This document shows positions 1 through 30,963 of a DNA stretch of 64,000 bases, piece by piece; the stretch's first letter is position 1; every line of letters starts with the position of its first letter. The notes below the pieces were generated by a model. The model was given only the letters and a program-made list of their open reading frames with translations. It ran no database searches and had not been told where the DNA came from. The DNA comes from a phage, in sequence record PZ445526.1; one strand, written 5' to 3'. A program made the translations under genes and the position numbers.

Positions 1-1836
<1,836 letters not shown>

Positions 1837-1864
1837 TATTAAAGCATATTAAAGAGGATTAAAA

Positions 1865-3844
1865 ATGACTTTATTATCTCCGGGCATTGAGCTCAAAGAA
1901 ACTACGGTTCAAAGCACCGTGGTTAATAACTCTACTGGTACAGCAGCTTTGGCCGGTAAATTCCAGTGGGGTCCTGCTTTTCAGATTAAACAGGTTACAA
2001 ATGAAGTAGATTTAGTTAATACTTTTGGTCAACCAACCGCTGAAACTGCTGACTATTTTATGTCTGCGATGAATTTCTTGCAGTACGGAAATGACTTACG
2101 AGTAGTTCGTGCTGTTGATAGAGATACCGCTAAAAACTCATCGCCAATTGCTGGTAATATTGAATACACAATTTCTACCCCAGGTAGTAACTATGCGGTT
2201 GGAGATAAAATCACGGTCAAATATGTTTCAGATGATATTGAAACTGAAGGTAAAATTACCGAAGTAGATGCTGATGGAAAAATTAAGAAAATTAATATTC
2301 CTACCGCAAAAATTATCGCTAAAGCGAAAGAAGTCGGTGAATATCCAGCACTAGGTTCTAACTGGACTGCGGAAATTTCTTCGTCTTCCTCTGGTTTAGC
2401 TGCAGTAATAACTCTTGGAAAAATTATTACTGATTCTGGTATTTTATTAGCTGAAATTGAAAATGCTGAAGCTGCTATGACAGCGGTTGACTTTCAAGCA
2501 AATCTTGAAAAATACGGAATTCCAGGAGTAGTAGCTCTTTATCCAGGTGAGTTGGGCGATAAAATTGAAATTGAAATCGTATCTAAAGCTGACTATGCAA
2601 AAGGAGCTTCTGCATTACTCCCAATTTATCCAGGCGGTGGTACTCGTGCATCTACTGCTAAAGCAGTGTTTGGATATGGACCACAAACTGATTCACAGTA
2701 CGCTATTATAGTTCGTCGTAATGATGCTATTGTTCAAAGCGTTGTTCTTTCAACTAAGCGTGGTGAAAAAGATATTTACGATAGTAACATCTATATCGAT
2801 GACTTTTTCGCAAAAGGCGGCTCAGAATATATTTTTGCAACTGCACAAAACTGGCCAAAAGGCTTCTCTGGAATTTTAACTCTGTCTGGTGGATTATCAT
2901 CAAATGCTGAAGTAACAGCAGGAGATTTGATGGAAGCTTGGGACTTCTTTGCTGACCGTGAATCCGTTGATGTTCAACTGTTTATTGCGGGTTCTTGTGC
3001 CGGTGAATCTTTAGAAACAGCATCTACTGTCCAAAAACACGTCGTTTCAATTGGGGATGCTCGCCAAGATTGCTTAGTATTGTGCTCTCCTCCGCGTGAA
3101 ACTGTAGTTGGAATTCCTGTAACTCGTGCAGTAGATAATTTAGTTAACTGGAGAACTGCAGCAGGTTCATACACTGATAATAACTTTAATATCAGTTCAA
3201 CCTATGCAGCAATCGATGGTAACTACAAATATCAGTATGACAAATATAATGATGTGAATCGTTGGGTTCCATTAGCAGCTGATATTGCTGGTTTATGCGC
3301 AAGAACTGATAACGTATCTCAGACTTGGATGTCTCCAGCTGGTTATAATCGTGGTCAGATTCTTAACGTTATTAAACTTGCTATTGAAACTCGCCAGGCT
3401 CAGCGCGACCGTTTATACCAAGAAGCTATCAACCCAGTAACTGGTACAGGTGGCGATGGTTACGTATTGTATGGTGATAAAACAGCTACTTCTGTTCCTT
3501 CTCCGTTTGATCGTATTAACGTTCGTCGTCTGTTTAATATGTTGAAAACGAATATCGGACGTAGTTCAAAATATCGTTTGTTCGAATTAAACAACGCGTT
3601 TACTCGTTCATCATTCCGCACAGAAACTGCCCAGTACTTACAGGGAATTAAAGCTCTCGGTGGAATTTATGAATATCGTGTAGTTTGCGATACAACAAAT
3701 AATACTCCGTCAGTAATTGATAGAAACGAGTTTGTTGCAACATTCTACATCCAACCGGCTAGAAGCATTAACTACATTACCTTAAACTTCGTAGCAACTG
3801 CTACTGGTGCAGATTTCGATGAGTTAACTGGTCTTGCAGGTTAA
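1865..3844 (+). CDS. 18: Tail sheath protein gp18
   Basis: 659-aa ORF, same length as T4 gp18; late promoter and SD upstream; position between 17 and 19. Confidence 0.95.
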   Translation: MTLLSPGIELKETTVQSTVVNNSTGTAALAGKFQWGPAFQIKQVTNEVDLVNTFGQPTAETADYFMSAMNFLQYGNDLRVVRAVDRDTAKNSSPIAGNIEYTISTPGSNYAVGDKITVKYVSDDIETEGKITEVDADGKIKKINIPTAKIIAKAKEVGEYPALGSNWTAEISSSSSGLAAVITLGKIITDSGILLAEIENAEAAMTAVDFQANLEKYGIPGVVALYPGELGDKIEIEIVSKADYAKGASALLPIYPGGGTRASTAKAVFGYGPQTDSQYAIIVRRNDAIVQSVVLSTKRGEKDIYDSNIYIDDFFAKGGSEYIFATAQNWPKGFSGILTLSGGLSSNAEVTAGDLMEAWDFFADRESVDVQLFIAGSCAGESLETASTVQKHVVSIGDARQDCLVLCSPPRETVVGIPVTRAVDNLVNWRTAAGSYTDNNFNISSTYAAIDGNYKYQYDKYNDVNRWVPLAADIAGLCARTDNVSQTWMSPAGYNRGQILNVIKLAIETRQAQRDRLYQEAINPVTGTGGDGYVLYGDKTATSVPSPFDRINVRRLFNMLKTNIGRSSKYRLFELNNAFTRSSFRTETAQYLQGIKALGGIYEYRVVCDTTNNTPSVIDRNEFVATFYIQPARSINYITLNFVATATGADFDELTGLAG

Positions 3845-3960: not shown

Positions 3961-4452
3961 ATGTTTGTAGATGATGTAACACGAGCGTTTGAATCTGGTG
4001 ATTTTGCTCGACCTAACTTATTCCAAGTAGAAATTTCTTATCTTGGACAAAATTTTACGTTCCAATGTAAAGCTACTGCTCTACCAGCTGGTATTGTAGA
4101 AAAAATTCCAGTCGGATTTATGAACCGTAAAATTAACGTAGCAGGCGATCGTACATTCGATGACTGGACTGTTACAGTAATGAACGATGAAGCTCATGAT
4201 GCTCGCCAGAAGTTCGTTGATTGGCAAAGCATTGCTGCGGGACAAGGAAACGAAATTACTGGCGGAAAACCTGCAGAGTATAAAAAGAGCGCTATCGTTC
4301 GTCAATATGCTCGTGACGCTAAAACAGTAACAAAAGAAATCGAAATTAAAGGTCTGTGGCCTACTAACGTGGGTGAACTTCAATTGGATTGGGATTCAAA
4401 CAATGAAATCCAAACATTTGAAGTAACTCTTGCTCTCGATTATTGGGAATAA
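3961..4452 (+). CDS. 19: Tail tube protein gp19
   Basis: 163-aa ORF, T4 gp19 size and position; two TATAAATA motifs upstream. Confidence 0.93.
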   Translation: MFVDDVTRAFESGDFARPNLFQVEISYLGQNFTFQCKATALPAGIVEKIPVGFMNRKINVAGDRTFDDWTVTVMNDEAHDARQKFVDWQSIAAGQGNEITGGKPAEYKKSAIVRQYARDAKTVTKEIEIKGLWPTNVGELQLDWDSNNEIQTFEVTLALDYWE

Positions 4453-4457
4453 AATGA

Positions 4458-4475
4458 ATGGGGAGAAATCCCCAT
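4458..4475 (+). terminator. Stem-loop downstream of gene 19
   Basis: ATGGGGA-GAAA-TCCCCAT with GNRA-type loop. Confidence 0.5.
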
Positions 4476-4484
4476 CCTGCTTAA

Positions 4485-6109
<1,625 letters not shown>

Positions 6110-6110
<1 letters not shown>

Positions 6111-6349
6111 TGGAAGGTTTAATTGAAGCTATTAAATCAAACGACCTCGTAGCCGCTCGTAAATTATTTGCTGAAGCCATGGCTGCAAGAACGATTGATT
6201 TAATTAAAGAAGAAAAAATCGCTATCGCTCGTAATTTCTTAATCGAAGGCGAAGAACCTGAAGACGAGGATGATGACGAAGACGAAGATAGTGATGATAA
6301 AGACGACAAAAAAGACGAAGACTCTGACGAAGACGAGGATGATGAATAA
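6110..6349 (+). CDS. 67: Prohead core protein gp67 (acidic C-terminal tail)
   Basis: 79-aa ORF, start overlaps gp20 stop (TAATG); Asp/Glu-rich tail; conserved position. Confidence 0.85.
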
Positions 6350-6774
6350 TGCTTCTGATCCCTGAAACTCATGAATTAGTTCTCGAGAATGTCGAAGCAC
6401 TTATTCCTGAAGCACAGGGTCGCTTTGACGAATTGTCTTCTGCTTTAAATAAAGACGATATAAATACAATTGTCGAGAATATGCTTGATGATGAAACTGA
6501 TTTAGCGGTTGCATTAGCTTCTATTAATGAAAATATGCCGTTAAATGAATTCATCGTTAAACATGTTTCCGCCCGTGGTGAAATTACTCGCACTAAAGAC
6601 CGCAAAACGCGTGAACGTAATGCATTTCAAACCACTGGGCTGTCTAAAGCAAAACGTAGACAAATTGCTCGTAAAGCTACCAAAACGAAGATTGCCAATC
6701 CAGCAGGTCAATCTCGTGCTCAGCGTAAGCGTAAAAAAGCTCTTAAACGCCGTAAAGCATTAGGATTAAGCTAA
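6349..6774 (+). CDS. 68: Prohead core protein gp68
   Basis: 141-aa ORF coupled by TAATG overlap to gp67 and to gp21; basic C-terminus. Confidence 0.85.
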
Positions 6775-7412
6775 TGAATGAACCCCAATTACTAATTGAA
6801 ACTTGGGGTCAACCTGGCGAAATTATTGATGGCGTACCAATGCTTGAATCTCATGATGGAAAAGACTTAGGTTTAAAACCGGGTTTATACATCGAAGGAA
6901 TATTCATGCAAGCGGAAGTCGTCAATAGAAATAAACGTCTTTATCCAAAACGTATATTAGAAAAAGCGGTAAAAGACTATATTAATGAGCAAGTTTTAAC
7001 TAAACAAGCTCTCGGAGAATTAAATCATCCTCCACGCGCTAATGTTGACCCGATGCAAGCCGCTATCATTATAGAAGATATGTGGTGGAAAGGAAATGAC
7101 GTATACGGACGAGCTCGTGTTATTGAAGGTGACCATGGTCCTGGAGATAAATTAGCAGCTAATATTCGTGCCGGATGGATTCCAGGAGTTTCTTCTCGTG
7201 GATTAGGTTCATTGACTGACACAAATAAAGGTTATCGTATCGTAAACGAAGGATTCAAATTAACTGTAGGTGTTGATGCAGTATGGGGTCCAAGTGCTCC
7301 AGATGCATGGGTAACTCCTAAGGAAATTACCGAATCACAGACGGCGGAAGCCGATACAAGTGCCGATGACGCCTATATGGCTCTCGCAGAGGCCATGAAA
7401 AAAGCGTTATAA
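6774..7412 (+). CDS. 21: Prohead core protease gp21
   Basis: 212-aa ORF, T4 gp21 size and position. Confidence 0.92.
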   Translation: MNEPQLLIETWGQPGEIIDGVPMLESHDGKDLGLKPGLYIEGIFMQAEVVNRNKRLYPKRILEKAVKDYINEQVLTKQALGELNHPPRANVDPMQAAIIIEDMWWKGNDVYGRARVIEGDHGPGDKLAANIRAGWIPGVSSRGLGSLTDTNKGYRIVNEGFKLTVGVDAVWGPSAPDAWVTPKEITESQTAEADTSADDAYMALAEAMKKAL

Positions 7413-7415
7413 ATA
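7408..7415 (+). promoter_or_regulatory. Late promoter TATAAATA upstream of gene 22
   Basis: Exact motif overlapping the gp21 stop, 28 nt before the gene 22 ATG. Confidence 0.7.
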
Positions 7416-7442
7416 TTATTATCTAAACAACAGGACTACAAA

Positions 7443-8252
7443 ATGCTTAAAGAACAACTGATTGCCGAAGCGCAGAAAATTGATGCTTCCGTTGCTCTTG
7501 ATAGTATTTTCGAATCAGTTAATATTTCTCCGGAAGCAAAAGAAACTTTCGGCACTGTATTCGAAGCTACCGTCAAGCAGCACGCCGTTAAATTAGCTGA
7601 ATCTCATATCGCTAAAATTGCTGAAAAAGCAGAAGAAGAAGTAGAAAAAAATAAAGAAGAAGCCGAAGAAAAAGCTGAGAAGAAAATCGCTGAGCAAGCT
7701 TCTAAATTCATTGACCATCTTGCGAAAGAATGGCTCGCTGAAAATAAATTAGCAGTTGATAAAGGCATCAAAGCCGAACTGTTTGAATCCATGCTTGGTG
7801 GATTAAAAGAGCTCTTTGTTGAACACAACGTTGTTGTTCCAGAAGAATCAGTTGATGTTGTAGCTGAAATGGAAGAAGAGCTGCAAGAACATAAAGAAGA
7901 ATCAGCTCGTCTGTTCGAAGAACTCAATATGCGCGACGCATATATCAATTATGTGCAGCGTGAAGTGGCATTGAGCGAAAGTACTAAAGATCTGACTGAG
8001 TCTCAAAAAGAAAAAGTCTCTGCTCTGGTCGAAGGTATGGATTATTCAGATGCATTCTCAAGTAAATTGAGTGCAATCGTAGAAATGGTGAAGAAATCTA
8101 ATAAAGATGAAAGCACTATTACTGAGGGTATAAATACTCCTGATACTGAAGCAGCCGGACTGAATTTCGTCACTGAAGCTGTAGAAGATAAAGCTGCACA
8201 GGGTGCAGAAGATATTGTAAGTGTATATGCGAAAGTCGCATCTCGTTTCTAA
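7443..8252 (+). CDS. 22: Prohead core scaffold protein gp22
   Basis: 269-aa acidic, coiled-coil-rich ORF; T4 gp22 size and position; late promoter upstream. Confidence 0.92.
   Translation: MLKEQLIAEAQKIDASVALDSIFESVNISPEAKETFGTVFEATVKQHAVKLAESHIAKIAEKAEEEVEKNKEEAEEKAEKKIAEQASKFIDHLAKEWLAENKLAVDKGIKAELFESMLGGLKELFVEHNVVVPEESVDVVAEMEEELQEHKEESARLFEELNMRDAYINYVQREVALSESTKDLTESQKEKVSALVEGMDYSDAFSSKLSAIVEMVKKSNKDESTITEGINTPDTEAAGLNFVTEAVEDKAAQGAEDIVSVYAKVASRF
8129..8136 (+). promoter_or_regulatory. Candidate late promoter for gene 23 inside 3' end of gene 22
   Basis: Exact TATAAATA about 135 nt upstream of the gene 23 ATG; nearest such motif. Confidence 0.45.
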
Positions 8253-24730: not shown

Positions 24731-24760
24731 ATGGGGACCTTTCGGTCCCCATATTTTTAT
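24731..24760. terminator. Bidirectional terminator after gene 54
   Basis: ATGGGGACC-TTTC-GGTCCCCAT followed by ATTTTTATTT. Confidence 0.7.
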
Positions 24761-25078: not shown

Positions 25079-25107
25079 ACTATAACACAACATAAGGGAC
25101 TTGTAAA
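25079..25107 (-). promoter_or_regulatory. Sigma70-like early promoter (-35 TTTACA, 17-bp spacer, TGn, -10 TATAGT)
   Basis: Read on the minus strand; -35 directly follows the alt stop codon; drives the 96-aa ORF. Confidence 0.55.
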
Positions 25108-27165
25108 CTACATTTTGAACTTTTTAGACATTCCATTGATGTTAACCAAAGAAGCCAAGATTTGAGAAACTTCGTTTTCCTCTTCTTTTGATTCTTCTAC
25201 AAGGAATTGATTAAATCCAATCATTGGACGAACTTCACCAGTTTCCATTAGATGGTCGCCATCATATACTGATTCCTCTAATTGTTCAGAAGGAGGAACG
25301 ATTGTACCTTCGATTAGATACTTGTTATAAGCAGTTTCTTTCATAAAGTAAGTACTTACTTTATTAATCTTCAGTAAAATTCCACGCGGTAGAATAACTT
25401 CAGCTTCTGATGGAAATCCTGATAAATGACCCGGAACGATAACTTTAATTCGCTCAGCTCCTTTAATTACCATACCCACGCTAGTTTCAGCATCTTCATT
25501 AGCATATGTAGAATGACTACCCATATGCATCAAATCTTCTGCATCAACAGAACCTTCTCCTTCGCCAGAAAATACTGCACCGGAATCATCTAGAGCCATA
25601 TAGTTTTTACCATGCTCACCGAAGATATTTGGTTTAAGCGATGTGGATACGAAGTTCTTGAAATAGAACATTTTGTTTTCAATGTTATGACGCAAAGTTT
25701 TAAAGGTAACTTCTTGTCCACGGTAAAGTGTAGTTCCTGGAGGAAGAACTGAACCTTTAGCGAATGCAGAATCAAGCGTCTCAATATGTTTAATAGCTCG
25801 TTCCATATATTCTTCACGGGTAGAATCTGGTTTACCCAAAAGGAACGAGTTCATTTCAACATATGAATCTGCACAATAATCTTCAATTACATCAGATTCA
25901 GCTTGAGTTAATCCTTTTGGAGTTACTTCGGTGCTTGCGTATTCATATGCCTGGGCAGCAGATTCATTAATCAATTTATAAATGCCATTCATGACAAATT
26001 GAATAATAGCTGTCTTTTCATCTGGCGTAGCTTTAGAACCTTTAACTAAATCATTAATAATTTTCTTAATAACATCAAAGCTATTAGAAATATTAATGTC
26101 AGCAAGATCGCTTAAAATTTTATCAGTTTTATAATCAAAGAATTCTTTATTCTTTAAATATTCTTGAGAACCTTGATATGTTATATCGCTCTGCAACTTG
26201 ATGGATGGATCACGTAAACGTGCATGGGCTAATGCAATATGATTTCGGAAGTTTTCTAGTTCATAATCGCTAGATTTAAAACGAGAAGCACTCCTCATAC
26301 CACCGATAGCTCCTTTGTTGAAGTTTGAACCAATCTGAATAACGCCAGAGTTCATTGGTCCTTCTGCTTTATATACCGGAACTTTAGATTCAAACTCTTG
26401 ATATTTCTTGGCAGCGAAGCTATCACCCTGAAGTGAAGCATCGACAGTAGAATATTGAGCTTGTGCTGCTAATCGACGACTAATTTTAGTTTTCTGAATA
26501 ACCGCTTGGTCAGTACGTTTATCATTTTCTAAAGCAATAGAAGCAGCAACAGCGACAGCTTTAGGAACAGCATCACCTGTTTTAATGTCTACATAAACAT
26601 CACCAACCTTTGATTCAACTTTTGTGAATAACTCAGTTGAAATAGGAGGTACACCTGGAATGTCTTCTAAATTGGCATTTTTACGGTAAACCATAATATA
26701 TGCATACTTTTTATCATAGTCCCAGATTTCCTTTAAAAGAACATATCGACCTGCTCCTTTAGTACGTACTAAACGGTCAGCAATAACTTGCATTTGACGA
26801 GCAGCGCCATTTGTTTTACTTTTTAGTACGCGGAATAGGCATGCGTCAATTTTATACTGTTTCATTGTTTGAAGAGCAGTATCAAAAACAGCATTAATGA
26901 CGCCAATTGGATTTCCACCCAAGTTTCTAAGCTTAACCAGCGATAATTTCTCGTTGACACCTATCATTACGATATGCATCATTTTATCGCCTGGCTTAAC
27001 GTTTTTATTTGTATCACCACCAGAGGTGTATGTACAAAATCTAAATCCAGGAAGCACGCTTTCTTCGCCGGCTTGGATAGCAAAAATTTGTGGTATTTTA
27101 TGCTTAGGATTTAAGTTAACAACCGGCGCCGAAGCGCCGTCAAATAATTCTGTAATAAGTTCCAT
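25108..27165 (-). CDS. alt: Alt-family NAD-protein ADP-ribosyltransferase (685 aa)
   Basis: N-terminus MELITELFD; R-S-E ART motifs visible (YRGQ, FVSTSL, EAEVILPRG); size close to T4 Alt (682 aa as recalled). Confidence 0.85.
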   Translation of the reverse strand: MELITELFDGASAPVVNLNPKHKIPQIFAIQAGEESVLPGFRFCTYTSGGDTNKNVKPGDKMMHIVMIGVNEKLSLVKLRNLGGNPIGVINAVFDTALQTMKQYKIDACLFRVLKSKTNGAARQMQVIADRLVRTKGAGRYVLLKEIWDYDKKYAYIMVYRKNANLEDIPGVPPISTELFTKVESKVGDVYVDIKTGDAVPKAVAVAASIALENDKRTDQAVIQKTKISRRLAAQAQYSTVDASLQGDSFAAKKYQEFESKVPVYKAEGPMNSGVIQIGSNFNKGAIGGMRSASRFKSSDYELENFRNHIALAHARLRDPSIKLQSDITYQGSQEYLKNKEFFDYKTDKILSDLADINISNSFDVIKKIINDLVKGSKATPDEKTAIIQFVMNGIYKLINESAAQAYEYASTEVTPKGLTQAESDVIEDYCADSYVEMNSFLLGKPDSTREEYMERAIKHIETLDSAFAKGSVLPPGTTLYRGQEVTFKTLRHNIENKMFYFKNFVSTSLKPNIFGEHGKNYMALDDSGAVFSGEGEGSVDAEDLMHMGSHSTYANEDAETSVGMVIKGAERIKVIVPGHLSGFPSEAEVILPRGILLKINKVSTYFMKETAYNKYLIEGTIVPPSEQLEESVYDGDHLMETGEVRPMIGFNQFLVEESKEEENEVSQILASLVNINGMSKKFKM

Positions 27166-27168
27166 GAT

Positions 27169-29265
27169 TTATCCTTGAACGAACTTGTAAGGCATGTTTG
27201 TAATATCTATGCAAGACGCAATAATTCCAATAGATGATTCTACTTTCTGTTTAACATTTGATGAAACAAATGATGCAAAGTCAACTCTGTCTTCTATTTC
27301 AATATCATCTGTCATTGCAACTACTTCACCGGTTTCCATTAAACGGTCTCCGTCATAGATTACCGATTCGGTGAGTTCTTCTGTGGTCATAACTTCAGCT
27401 TGAATGAGTTTTGTATTGTTAGATGTTGTTCCGTCATTATTAGAAGCATCAGTTATTTTATTAACTTTGACCATCAATCCGCGCGGTAGAATAACTTCAG
27501 CTTCTGTTGCTATTCCGAGACTTCCTGGATATACAACATTAACTTTATGTGCGCCGTCAATTGCCCATCCTATTTGAACTTTAACGTATTCAGGATTTTC
27601 TTTATACGCTCTTATTTCGTTTGGATTAATAGTTATTCCTTCTTCATTTTTATCAACTGTTAATTCATTGCGAGCTTCTGGTTCTAAAAGACCAATACCA
27701 GCATGTGTAATTCCAAAACGTCCAAAAATGATAGGAGTTAAAGAAGTAGATACAAAATTTCTGAAATAGAACACTTTATTTTTAACTAGTGCTTCGTATA
27801 TAGGAGCAGTCATACTTTGAGCACGATAAACTGTAATGCCTTCCGGTATGCGGTCACCATTTTCAAAAGCTGAATCTAAATTATTTATAGCAGATTCAAT
27901 TTCTTTTTCACTCATTACATCATATCGTTCTGGATTGTAACGACCTAAAAGAAGATTATTAATGTCTGTATATCCTGAACCACAATACTCTCTAATACCG
28001 CGCTTTTGTGATGGAGTATATTTAGAACCATCACGGGCAATAGTAATATCAATCATTGGACCAGCACCAATTCCAGAAAAACTATAAATCATTCGTTTGA
28101 GGAATTTAGTTTTTGCTGCATTCCAGGCATTTTTAGTTATTTCTCCCCAGACTTCATCTGGTTGCCCTTTACGAGTTTTATTATGTTTATCAAGCCAATT
28201 ATCTTTATATTCTTCAAAGAATTTATTAATAGCTGCTGCGTATTTCTCTAAACATTTTATTGAAGTAGTTGGTTCATTTTTTATCGCGTTAAAAATTACA
28301 TCTTTAATTTTTTCGGAAACTTCATCAACCTCACTTTTTGAAAAGAATTTATAGTCATAGTGAAGTTCATTCGCAGTTCCTTCGGCAATAATTTTTGCTG
28401 CCTTAGTTTTAGAAGCTAATGAATTAATTCCAAGCTTCATTTCTTCTGCTTCGGGAATTAAAGGAGCGGTAGCAGGTTTATTGAAATTAGCTGCGGTAGA
28501 TTCATACTTCTGGAATAATTCACTTTCAAATCTAGAAGATTCCAATGACTGACTTTGTGCAATTGCTCTACGGGAAATTTTAACTTTAACGATTACAGCT
28601 TGATCAGAACGTTTATCATTTTCTTGCGCAATAGATGCTGCAATTGCCTCATTTTTAGTTACTTGAGCTCCAGTATCTTTATTGATATAAACATCACCAA
28701 CCTTTGATTCAACTTTAGTAAAGAGCTCGGTACTAATTTCCGGAACTCCTGGAATGTCTTCTAGTGATACATTTTTGCGATGTATAAGAATATATGCATA
28801 CTTTTTATCATAGTCCCAGATTTCCTTAAGAATGACGTATCTGCCACCTGAACGACTACGGATAAGTCTATCAGCAATAACTTGAATTTGTCGAGCTTGA
28901 CCAGCGGTTTTAGACTTAAGAATACGGAGCATACAAGCATCAATTTTATATTGACGCATTGTTTGCATTGCAACAGTAAAAACTGAATTGATATAATTAA
29001 TTGGGCTTGGACCAAGACCTTTCAATTTAGCAATTGAACCTTTAGCAGTTAATGTAAAAGGAACAATATGCATCATTTTATCGCCCATTTTTAAATCGCG
29101 ATTAGTATCACCTCCAGATGTATAGGTACATAAACGAAAGCCTGGTTGTTCAATTGCATCATCAACGTGAACTGAAAAAATTTGCGGTATTTTCTTCTTT
29201 GGATTTAAGTTTGTAATCGGAAGAGTAGTATCTTCGTCAAATAATTCTGTAATGAGTTCCATCAT
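27169..29265 (-). CDS. Second Alt-family ADP-ribosyltransferase paralog (698 aa)
   Basis: Same N-terminal MELITELFD...NLNPKKKIPQIF...CTYTSGGDTN and the same R / STS / EAEVILPRG motifs as the adjacent alt but diverged centrally; stop lies 3 nt before the alt start. Confidence 0.85.
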   Translation of the reverse strand: MMELITELFDEDTTLPITNLNPKKKIPQIFSVHVDDAIEQPGFRLCTYTSGGDTNRDLKMGDKMMHIVPFTLTAKGSIAKLKGLGPSPINYINSVFTVAMQTMRQYKIDACMLRILKSKTAGQARQIQVIADRLIRSRSGGRYVILKEIWDYDKKYAYILIHRKNVSLEDIPGVPEISTELFTKVESKVGDVYINKDTGAQVTKNEAIAASIAQENDKRSDQAVIVKVKISRRAIAQSQSLESSRFESELFQKYESTAANFNKPATAPLIPEAEEMKLGINSLASKTKAAKIIAEGTANELHYDYKFFSKSEVDEVSEKIKDVIFNAIKNEPTTSIKCLEKYAAAINKFFEEYKDNWLDKHNKTRKGQPDEVWGEITKNAWNAAKTKFLKRMIYSFSGIGAGPMIDITIARDGSKYTPSQKRGIREYCGSGYTDINNLLLGRYNPERYDVMSEKEIESAINNLDSAFENGDRIPEGITVYRAQSMTAPIYEALVKNKVFYFRNFVSTSLTPIIFGRFGITHAGIGLLEPEARNELTVDKNEEGITINPNEIRAYKENPEYVKVQIGWAIDGAHKVNVVYPGSLGIATEAEVILPRGLMVKVNKITDASNNDGTTSNNTKLIQAEVMTTEELTESVIYDGDRLMETGEVVAMTDDIEIEDRVDFASFVSSNVKQKVESSIGIIASCIDITNMPYKFVQG

Positions 29266-29285
29266 ATCCTCTCTAGTGTTTATTC

Positions 29286-29293
29286 TATTTATA
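29286..29293 (-). promoter_or_regulatory. Late promoter (minus strand) upstream of the second alt paralog
   Basis: Plus-strand TATTTATA about 21 nt from the ATG at 29265; follows a terminator hairpin. Confidence 0.55.
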
Positions 29294-29296
29294 AAA

Positions 29297-29318
29297 TTAA
29301 AGGCCCGAAGGCCTTTAA
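29297..29318 (-). terminator. Stem-loop terminating the ligase operon before the alt paralogs
   Basis: TTAAAGGCC-CGAA-GGCCTTTAA overlapping the stop of the 62-aa ORF. Confidence 0.55.
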
Positions 29319-29503
29319 TAATCTATTGGTAAGAGAGTACGATATATTTCAAACTTTGGACCTTTTTCATAAGCATCAAAAGTTTCTGTGAATTTATTAT
29401 AAGCATATGCATCGATAAATTCAATCATGATTTGTGATACAGAAGTAGAAACATCTCCACCTTCTTTTTGAGCCACGACAATTGTTTCTAAGTAAGCTTT
29501 CAT
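29315..29503 (-). CDS. Hypothetical small protein coupled to ligase
   Basis: 62-aa ORF whose ATG overlaps the gene 30 stop (ATGA); terminator hairpin overlaps its stop. Confidence 0.6.
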   Translation of the reverse strand: MKAYLETIVVAQKEGGDVSTSVSQIMIEFIDAYAYNKFTETFDAYEKGPKFEIYRTLLPIDY

Positions 29504-30963
29504 AAACCAGTTACCTCATGAAAATCACCAAATACATCCTCGAATGTATTAGCTTTAGTTTTATCTTCACGCAAACGAATCGCAATCGGAAGAAATAATT
29601 TAACGTAATCAGTGCGGCCATCAGATTTTAACCAACCGTTGCATTCGCACTCTAGAATTTTTCCAATATAATAATTTTGGTTTTCCATAATGCGAGTACG
29701 GTCAAGTTCATGCGATTTTACACCGGCTTTATCTTTTAAGCCTGAACCAGCATTTACTTTAATTTTTCCACACTCTGACTCAAGAATAAATCCACCTGCT
29801 TTAGTAGGGTCTTTACGGTGAGGATAAATTCCTACAATTTTTAAATCAACATCAATTACTTCTTTAAATTTATAGAGATTTTTTGAACGAGCATTTTCCC
29901 ATAATCCATCGATATTTTTGAGAATAATACCTTCAAGACCTTGGTCAATATACTTTTTATAAATTACCTTAGCTTCATCTAGGTTATTTACTACCTGGTT
30001 TTCAATTAAAATTACTTTATCATATCCCGATGTCATTTGTTCTAGTTTAGAAAAACGTACATCATATTTCAAACGAAATGCTGGAAGACCGTATATTTCT
30101 ACTAATGGAACATAATCCCAGACCTGAAACTTCATGCATTGTGCTTCTTTTTCAGAAATGGTTCCCTTTAAAGATTTATTGGCGATTCCATTAGAAGCAG
30201 TACGTGATTCAGCTACTTCGGCGAATTCTTTAACTTTACTGTTTTCAGGATGAGCATCAAAAAGAAAATCTAGGCCTTCTGGCTCCTTTTTAACTTGCTC
30301 ATGGTATACCAATTCGCCATCAATTAACACACCTTCTGGATGAATCTGGCGGGCTTCAGCGGTCATTTTGATTAACTCTTCCTTAAGAAGATCTAATCCT
30401 AGGTATTCATTACCAGCTCGTGATAAAAGACGAACATCATCTAATTCATCACCTCTGACTTCAGCAAAGCACCGAGCCCCATCAGCTTTTAACTGGGCAA
30501 AGGCTGGAAATTTGATATTCTTATTAATGCCTTTTTCATCATAAGAACTTGCAAGCATTTGAGGTTGTTCAGGAATTAAACCTGGCCAAACTTTGTTTGC
30601 AATAGATACTGAAGCACCGCATTCAAGGTCTCGCATCATCACTCGACGCAAAACTTCAACATCATCTTTTTTACCATCGGTGATATATCCAGTTAATTCC
30701 TCAATTGCCGCATTTCCGGTCAATTTCCGAGTAGCTAACGTGAATTCAATGAAGTCAAGCATATCGGTAAGAGTCAACATTCCAAAACTCTGGGTAGCAA
30801 TACCAGGTTTAGGCCATTTCTTGATATAATACTGTAAGCCACGAGAATAAGTCAGACGATATACTCGTTTAAGCAATTCATTATCTTTATTCTTTTCAAG
30901 AATTGCTTGCTTCTGCTTAGTTGAACCAATAGATGCTATTTCGTTCAGAATTTTAAGAATCAT
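29500..30963 (-). CDS. 30: ATP-dependent DNA ligase gp30
   Basis: 487-aa ORF MILKILNEIASIGSTKQKQAILEKNKDNELL...; adenylation motif KADGARC; T4 ligase size. Confidence 0.95.
   Translation of the reverse strand: MILKILNEIASIGSTKQKQAILEKNKDNELLKRVYRLTYSRGLQYYIKKWPKPGIATQSFGMLTLTDMLDFIEFTLATRKLTGNAAIEELTGYITDGKKDDVEVLRRVMMRDLECGASVSIANKVWPGLIPEQPQMLASSYDEKGINKNIKFPAFAQLKADGARCFAEVRGDELDDVRLLSRAGNEYLGLDLLKEELIKMTAEARQIHPEGVLIDGELVYHEQVKKEPEGLDFLFDAHPENSKVKEFAEVAESRTASNGIANKSLKGTISEKEAQCMKFQVWDYVPLVEIYGLPAFRLKYDVRFSKLEQMTSGYDKVILIENQVVNNLDEAKVIYKKYIDQGLEGIILKNIDGLWENARSKNLYKFKEVIDVDLKIVGIYPHRKDPTKAGGFILESECGKIKVNAGSGLKDKAGVKSHELDRTRIMENQNYYIGKILECECNGWLKSDGRTDYVKLFLPIAIRLREDKTKANTFEDVFGDFHEVTGL

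Follow-up and report, generated by a model that had tools for sequence, protein, structure and literature searches.

Two tandem Alt-type ADP-ribosyltransferase genes at the alt locus of a T-even phage, and the remnant of the second gene in T4

Phage T4 packages into its head the mono-ADP-ribosyltransferase Alt, which is injected and modifies RNA polymerase alpha and other host proteins (PMC5512222, PMC9026906). There are approximately 40 copies per head, and they are ejected into the host (PMC5694885, PMC9026906). The 64,000-nucleotide stretch of phage DNA in record PZ445526.1 (the window) carries two adjacent genes of this type where T4 carries one full-length alt, and an earlier note on the window read the pair as a lineage-specific duplication. 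Was a second alt gained in this phage or lost in T4, and what does the second enzyme contribute? We consider it probable that the window holds alt followed by an old tandem paralogue, the full-length alt.-2 of T-even phages, and that both products are late proteins that are packaged and injected and differ in their targets.

The pair appears in the list of open reading frames (ORFs) as two minus-strand frames, 27169..29265 (698 aa) and 25108..27165 (685 aa), separated by 3 nt (27166-27168). The adjacency and common orientation given in the earlier note were therefore borne out, as was the length of 685 aa. The 698-aa ORF opens with ATGATG, and the spacing of the Shine-Dalgarno sequence GAGAGGA (29267-29273) suits the second ATG (29262). 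This start yields a 697-aa protein beginning MELITE, which agrees with the RB32 annotation and the N-terminus of T4 Alt, and 697 aa replaces 698. The genes lie between DNA ligase and alt.1 on one side and alt.-3 and gene 54 on the other, with a late promoter in front. Over the 4.85-kb locus, identity is 98.1% to RB32 and RB33 and 97.5–97.7% to T2 and T6. The pair and its neighbours make up the alt locus of a T-even phage. RB32 alt.-2 (YP_803136) is identical in kind and length (685 aa) to the second gene, with a dN of 0.004 between them.

The T4 reference (NC_000866) has a different arrangement in which alt (682 aa) is followed by alt.-1 (61 aa), alt.-2 (67 aa) and alt.-3. The T4 record describes alt.-1 and alt.-2 as an apparent old duplication of the first part of alt. 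Pairwise alignment revealed that this stump is collinear with the first ~350 nt (348 nt) of the second gene at ~95% identity. The flanks are the same, and the 3' flank and alt.-3 are also near-identical between T4 and the window (about 95%). Loss of 1 nt in an A-run splits the T4 stump into the alt.-1 and alt.-2 ORFs, after which T4 leaps from about codon 116 to the final 11 nt of the second gene. The T4-type deletion comprises 1699 nt between 9-bp direct repeats, CTAAAAAGT, of which one copy is left in T4. In translation, T4 alt.-1 (NP_049810) corresponds to residues 1-54 of the second protein and alt.-2 (NP_049809) to residues 62-116. T4 alt.-2 continues over the deletion junction out of the original frame and terminates 28 nt beyond the native stop. 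PHROG 23015 and 15247, with 61 and 67 positions, equal T4 alt.-1 and alt.-2 in length; they match the second protein at 2e-40 and 1e-37, and alt at 1e-21 and 2e-19. What T4 keeps as alt.-1 plus alt.-2 is present at full length in the second gene; the two T4 ORFs are the remnant of a complete paralogue and not, as the T4 record has it, a mere duplication of the start of alt. Because the ~95% identical stump is broken by a frameshift and a repeat-mediated deletion, T4 is the derived state, and the lineage-specific event is a loss in T4 and not a gain in this phage. The statement of the earlier note that T4 has a single alt holds for full-length genes, but the stump of the second gene is also there.

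T4 Alt (NP_049811; 682 aa) is the positional orthologue of the window alt, to which it is 69% identical overall. Identity reaches 95–100% over residues 1-240, falls to 15–53% over 241-400 and returns to 85–94% in the C-terminus. The two are alike in late promoter context, in the ITE-6 and LTE cleavage sites described below and in the R, STS and ExE catalytic residues, and differ in that the window alt (697 aa, RB32 type) has E-A-E where T4 Alt has E-M-E. The second protein shares the architecture of T4 Alt at 42% identity, and its gene is without a full-length counterpart in T4.

A survey of one versus two alt copies across Tequatrovirus, which the earlier note had proposed, was carried out in the GenBank phage collection. 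The part of the second gene that is absent from T4 (25108-26440) served as query at a coverage of at least 80%; record counts include duplicate and lab-derivative records. This part was found in 402 records at 93–98% identity, among them T2, T6, RB3, RB27, RB32/33 and many Escherichia, Shigella, Yersinia, Citrobacter and Salmonella isolates. Two genes are the majority state in Tequatrovirus. The intact T4-type deletion junction occurs in 91 records, which comprise T4 strains, RB55, RB59 and wild isolates such as HY03, SG1 and slur03. In a third state, represented by Yersinia phage PST (NC_027404), ECML-134 (NC_025449) and vB_EcoM_SCS4, a single gene lies between alt.1 and alt.-3. It is a hybrid of the alt N-terminus with the middle and catalytic half of the second gene, and a metagenome-derived hybrid copy has its crossover near codon 180. 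The hybrid looks like the product of unequal recombination between the tandem paralogues. A scan of IMG/VR with the second protein yielded only 5 loci.

The upstream gene is itself variable. The window alt (27169-29262) was compared with T4 alt (4455-6503 of the T4 stretch) and with pSs-1 (5662-7716 of its stretch), and at least two alleles were distinguished, the 697-aa RB32 type (E-A-E) and a 682–684-aa T4 type (E-M-E). They are nearly identical at residues 1-240 and in the C-terminus and 15–53% identical over 241-400, and either allele occurs with the second gene present or absent.

The pairwise alignment of the two window proteins, also proposed by the earlier note, gave 41% identity over 719 columns in BLASTP. 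The E-value of 9e-157 places their paralogy far beyond chance. Identity is 55–75% over residues 1-240, 12–25% over 241-440 and 40–47% in the ADP-ribosyltransferase (ART) core; it is only 7% in an insert at 521-560 and 30–35% in the C-terminal tail. The longest exact word common to the two genes is 39 nt (alt nt 436-474, second gene nt 433-471) and lies in the KEIWDYDKKYAYI region. Synonymous divergence between the paralogues is saturated, with dS of 1.0–1.4 in every segment, indicating that the duplication is old. Recent gene conversion between the two window genes was ruled out, since dS still amounts to 1.4 in the N-terminal segment, which is conserved.

Both proteins belong to the Alt family. 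They match Pfam PF03496 (ADPrib_exo_Tox) at 2e-37 and 128.8 bits (alt) and at 6e-20 and 71.9 bits (second protein), against a curated cut-off of 23.4 bits. PHROG 802, "Alt-like RNA polymerase ADP-ribosyltransferase", spans residues 1-696 of alt and 1-685 of the second protein, their full length, with E-values of 2.5e-271 and 3e-255. The family architecture of PF26846 plus PF03496 is precomputed on close homologues; neither Alt protein matched an NCBIfam model. The catalytic residues of alt are YRAQ-479 (R480), STS 505-507 and EAEVILPRG-587 (E587/E589), and those of the second protein are YRGQ-481 (R482), STS 507-509 and EAEVILPRG-587 (E587/E589). R, S-T-S and E-x-E are invariant across an 18-sequence homologue alignment in which identity goes down to 42%. 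The earlier note held that both copies keep intact catalytic motifs, and careful alignment agrees, as neither protein is without the Arg or the Glu. An ART fold was found for both proteins, with the arginine-specific Vis toxin as the best structural match. By sequence no solved structure was found for the second protein, and the profile search reached only C3-like toxins. Both proteins are predicted to be arginine-type (R-S-ExE, C3/VIP2-like) mono-ADP-ribosyltransferases. The catalytic fold and the Arg, Ser-Thr-Ser and Glu-x-Glu residues are common to the C3-like/VIP2-like R-S-E toxins (Vis, C3bot, CDTa, iota Ia, Certhrax; PF03496). The Alt proteins differ from these toxins by an added phage-specific N-terminal part of ~400 residues, by gp21 propeptides at both ends and by a ~40-residue insert after STS.

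Is the second enzyme merely a spare? Divergence between the paralogues is greatest in three places: the helical middle, where the earlier note saw a possible basis for different targets, the insert of ~40 residues that follows STS, and the loop preceding ExE, which reads PGSLGIATEAE in one paralogue and PGHLSGFPSEAE in the other. The latter two lie within the ART domain and offer a more specific argument. In C3-like enzymes the PN and ARTT loops, which follow STS and precede ExE, govern substrate recognition, and mutants of these loops are among the structural matches. Since the substrate-setting loops differ, each enzyme probably has its own set of host proteins to modify, although the sets may overlap. 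A second gene that is a redundant back-up on its way out, doing the same job on RNA polymerase alpha as Alt and adding only dosage, would be in keeping with its loss independently of alt in the 91 T4-type records, and with phages of the PST/ECML-134 type, which lost the catalytic half of alt instead, so that either catalytic module is dispensable. Alt itself is non-essential (PMC9026906). The second gene does not bear the signature of decay. Among five Tequatroviruses dN/dS of the second gene is 0.025–0.050 at dS up to 0.27, compared with 0.05–0.08 for alt within an allele type; its ORF is intact in 8/8 loci checked, and its distal part is kept in the 402 records. The second gene is under strong purifying selection. 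Pure redundancy is also unlikely after so old a divergence, with the ART core at 40–47% identity, the insert after STS at 7% and a different loop before ExE. We regard the back-up explanation as improbable.

From mass spectrometry of heads, two gp21 prohead protease cuts are known in T4 Alt, one at ITE-6 with loss of six N-terminal residues and one at LTE-619, where 63 residues are removed from the C-terminus (PMC5694885). Both window proteins start MELITE/LFD, the slash marking the cut. E6 and E631/632 align with both mapped T4 Alt sites and are invariant in 18 homologues. The earlier note argued for packaging from (L/I)xE motifs at the N-terminus; ITE-6 is indeed kept in both proteins, but the motif alone is weak evidence because it occurs 10 times in alt and 7 times in the second protein. 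The predicted mature masses are 70.1 kDa for alt and 69.2 kDa for the second protein, so that the mature products would be hard to tell apart on a gel.

Could the second protein instead be made late, stay out of the head and act in the cell that produced it, on late proteins of the host or the phage for instance? The literature yielded no virion data for it, and within the N-terminal 20 residues it departs somewhat from alt beyond position 9. However, the two proteins do not differ in MELITELFD and the E6 site, identity between their N-terminal domains is 55–75%, and conservation extends to the L-x-E site and the propeptide at the C-terminus (YDGD..ETGE, ..KF). Such features would be expected mainly of a protein that enters the prohead core and is cut by gp21, and action in the producing cell is given little credence. 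That alt was duplicated recently and only in the lineage of this phage, as a novelty compared with T4, is refuted: the one full-length alt of T4 and the similar N-termini of the two genes speak for it, but against it stand the saturated dS, the same pair in T2, T6 and RB32 (annotated with two genes) and in the rest of the 402 records, the stump in T4 with its repeat-mediated deletion, and the paralogous alt copies in further T4-like phages (such as dhaeg, vB_EcoM-E33, Aeromonas avDM phages and Acinetobacter ZZ1; Nolan 2006, PMC1524935).

The C-terminal ~55–65 residues (25108-25272 and 27169-27366), which gp21 would remove according to the T4 alignment, include some of the most conserved residues of the family: YDGD, E..GE and a K-F close to the terminus do not vary among 18 homologues. 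Such conservation suggests a role of the propeptide in targeting, tethering or activity control. The earlier note had counted YDGDxLMETGEV with the ART signature. YRxQ, STS and EAEVILPRG were rightly placed there, but YDGDxLMETGEV directly follows the site aligned with T4 Alt LTE-619 and is for this reason assigned to the conserved propeptide, outside the catalytic core.

The late promoter noted earlier in front of the upstream paralogue is present as TATAAATA, the only such box positioned to serve the gene pair. A terminator-like hairpin separates it from alt.1, and a conserved terminator upstream of alt has been described (Nolan 2006, PMC1524935). The Shine-Dalgarno sequence of the second gene stands directly before the alt stop codon (27169-27171), a placement that fits co-transcription with an own, possibly coupled, translation start. 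The only other minus-strand TATAAATA nearby (27882-27889) was considered as a dedicated late promoter for the second gene and rejected. It sits inside alt, 724 nt upstream of the ATG of the second gene, and encodes Ala-Ile-Asn-Asn at about residue 458; the 697-aa allele conserves it and the T4-type allele lacks it, so it is probably coding sequence only.

Taken together, alt and its tandem paralogue may work as follows. Each protein would consist of a short capsid-targeting propeptide ending at ITE-6, a conserved alpha/beta domain of ~200 residues, a variable helical region, the ART domain, an L-x-E site and a conserved C-terminal propeptide of ~55–65 residues. The single TATAAATA promoter ahead of alt would drive late transcription of both genes, with translation of the second beginning at its own ribosome-binding site beside the alt stop codon. 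Both proteins would enter the prohead core, where gp21 would trim both ends to leave products of ~70.1 and 69.2 kDa. Injected with the DNA, they would attach ADP-ribose to arginines of host proteins during the first seconds of infection. The two-gene state itself is old and common; in T4 a frameshift and a deletion between repeats removed the second enzyme, and a few phages fused the genes into one hybrid.

Several points weigh against parts of this scheme. We found no experimental work in the literature on virion presence or enzyme activity of the second protein. That its targets differ is plausible from loop divergence only, and the AF2 models of both proteins have low confidence exactly in the divergent insert after STS. 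No late-promoter box of its own was found near the second gene on the minus strand; co-transcription from the alt promoter is the simplest reading, which we infer only from the 3-nt gap. T4-type phages, wild isolates included, do without the second gene, and as stated above even Alt is dispensable. The contribution of the second gene may be small or host-specific.

Two further elements of the locus lie beyond the second gene. A sigma-70 or T4-early-like promoter (TTTACA, 17 nt, TATAGT, with TG) at 25079-25107 (-), immediately past the second gene stop, is so placed that it could give alt.-3 (DUF5498) expression separate from that of the late alt genes; T4 keeps it as well. Between the converging gene 54 (+) and alt.-3 (-) there is a GC-rich hairpin with a 9-bp stem (24731-24752), which scored as terminator-like on either strand.

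Table 1. Coordinates of genes, domains, sites and signals at the alt locus; positions are those of the window unless another stretch is named.
Feature	Position	Strand	Remarks
alt (upstream paralogue)	27169..29262	-	697 aa counted from second ATG; alternative ATG at 29265
alt N-terminal domain, residues 1-240	28543..29262	-	alpha/beta domain, PF26846 Tevenvirinae_ADPRT; holds ITE-6
ITE-6 of alt	29245-29247	-	codon 6
alt ART catalytic domain, ~residues 410-628	27379..28035	-	R480, S505-T-S507, E587-A-E589
LTE-632 of alt	27367-27369	-	predicted gp21 site; follows ART domain
Second Alt paralogue	25108..27165	-	685 aa; named alt.-2 in RB32
Second gene N-terminal domain, residues 1-240	26446..27165	-	holds ITE-6; 55–75% identical to that of alt
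ITE-6 of second gene	27148-27150	-	codon 6
Second gene ART catalytic domain, ~residues 416-625	25291..25920	-	R482, S507-T-S509, E587-A-E589
LEE-631 of second protein	25273-25275	-	predicted gp21 site; follows ART domain
First CTAAAAAGT copy	26818..26826	-	codon 114 of second gene; 5' breakpoint of T4-type deletion
Second CTAAAAAGT copy	25119..25127	-	codon 680; 3' breakpoint of T4-type deletion
T4-type late promoter box TATAAATA	29286..29293	-	20 nt upstream of alt first ATG
Hairpin AAAGGCC-TTCG-GGCCTTT, then T-rich run	29299..29316	-	terminator-like; divides alt.1 from late promoter; read from sequence
Shine-Dalgarno AAGGA of second gene	27172..27176	-	6 nt before ATG
DNA ligase (gene 30)	29500..30963		upstream of pair
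alt.1 homologue, 62 aa	29315..29503		upstream of pair; Pfam "Phage blade protein"
alt.-3 homologue, 96 aa	24757..25047		downstream of pair; DUF5498
Baseplate genes 54 and 48		+	downstream of pair
T4 stump compared	4066-4451 of T4 stretch		
Hybrid gene	1501-3561 of PST stretch; 5001-7055 of metagenome-derived locus		

A precedent for divergence after duplication exists in T4 itself. ModA and ModB are proteins of only about 200 aa that are made early. Like the Alt pair, they are encoded in tandem by paralogues that have diverged, and they act on different targets. Both fall within the Alt/VIP2 ART clade together with Alt and, unlike Alt, are not packaged (PMC5512222). A tentative proposal, which we think somewhat unlikely, is that the second Alt is an injected effector with a specialisation and host targets of its own and perhaps a function in counter-defence; equally tentative is the corollary that the locus states reflect host-dependent selection. 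If it were true, the effector would have been overlooked because T4 deleted the gene and because the predicted 69.2 kDa mature form would co-migrate with Alt at 70.1 kDa. The three locus states and the mix-and-match alt alleles would then represent host-dependent selection on injected ADP-ribosyltransferase modules, and the variability of the locus would parallel that of the variable internal proteins Ip1-Ip3.

The gene pair is real, ordinary and already known. In RefSeq the two genes of RB32, T2, T6 and numerous other phages each carry the name "Alt-like RNA polymerase ADP-ribosyltransferase", so that the novelty relative to the reference implied by the earlier note essentially falls away against these phages and the majority of the survey. 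Nolan et al. (2006, PMC1524935) listed alt paralogues, including T4 alt.-1 and alt.-2, and a 2026 paper on a Sextaphag Tequatrovirus reports two paralogous Alt-like proteins of 43% identity and proposes diverged targets. The discovery value is accordingly small, and the residual value is practical. Most natural T4-like coliphages encode, and perhaps inject, two different Alt enzymes, whereas nearly all experimental knowledge stems from T4, with one. The T4 complement should not be assumed in work on host takeover, ADP-ribosylation targets and phage defence in T2, T6 and therapeutic Tequatroviruses. The repeat-mediated deletion in T4 and the natural hybrid genes are ready genetic contrasts for the role of the second enzyme.

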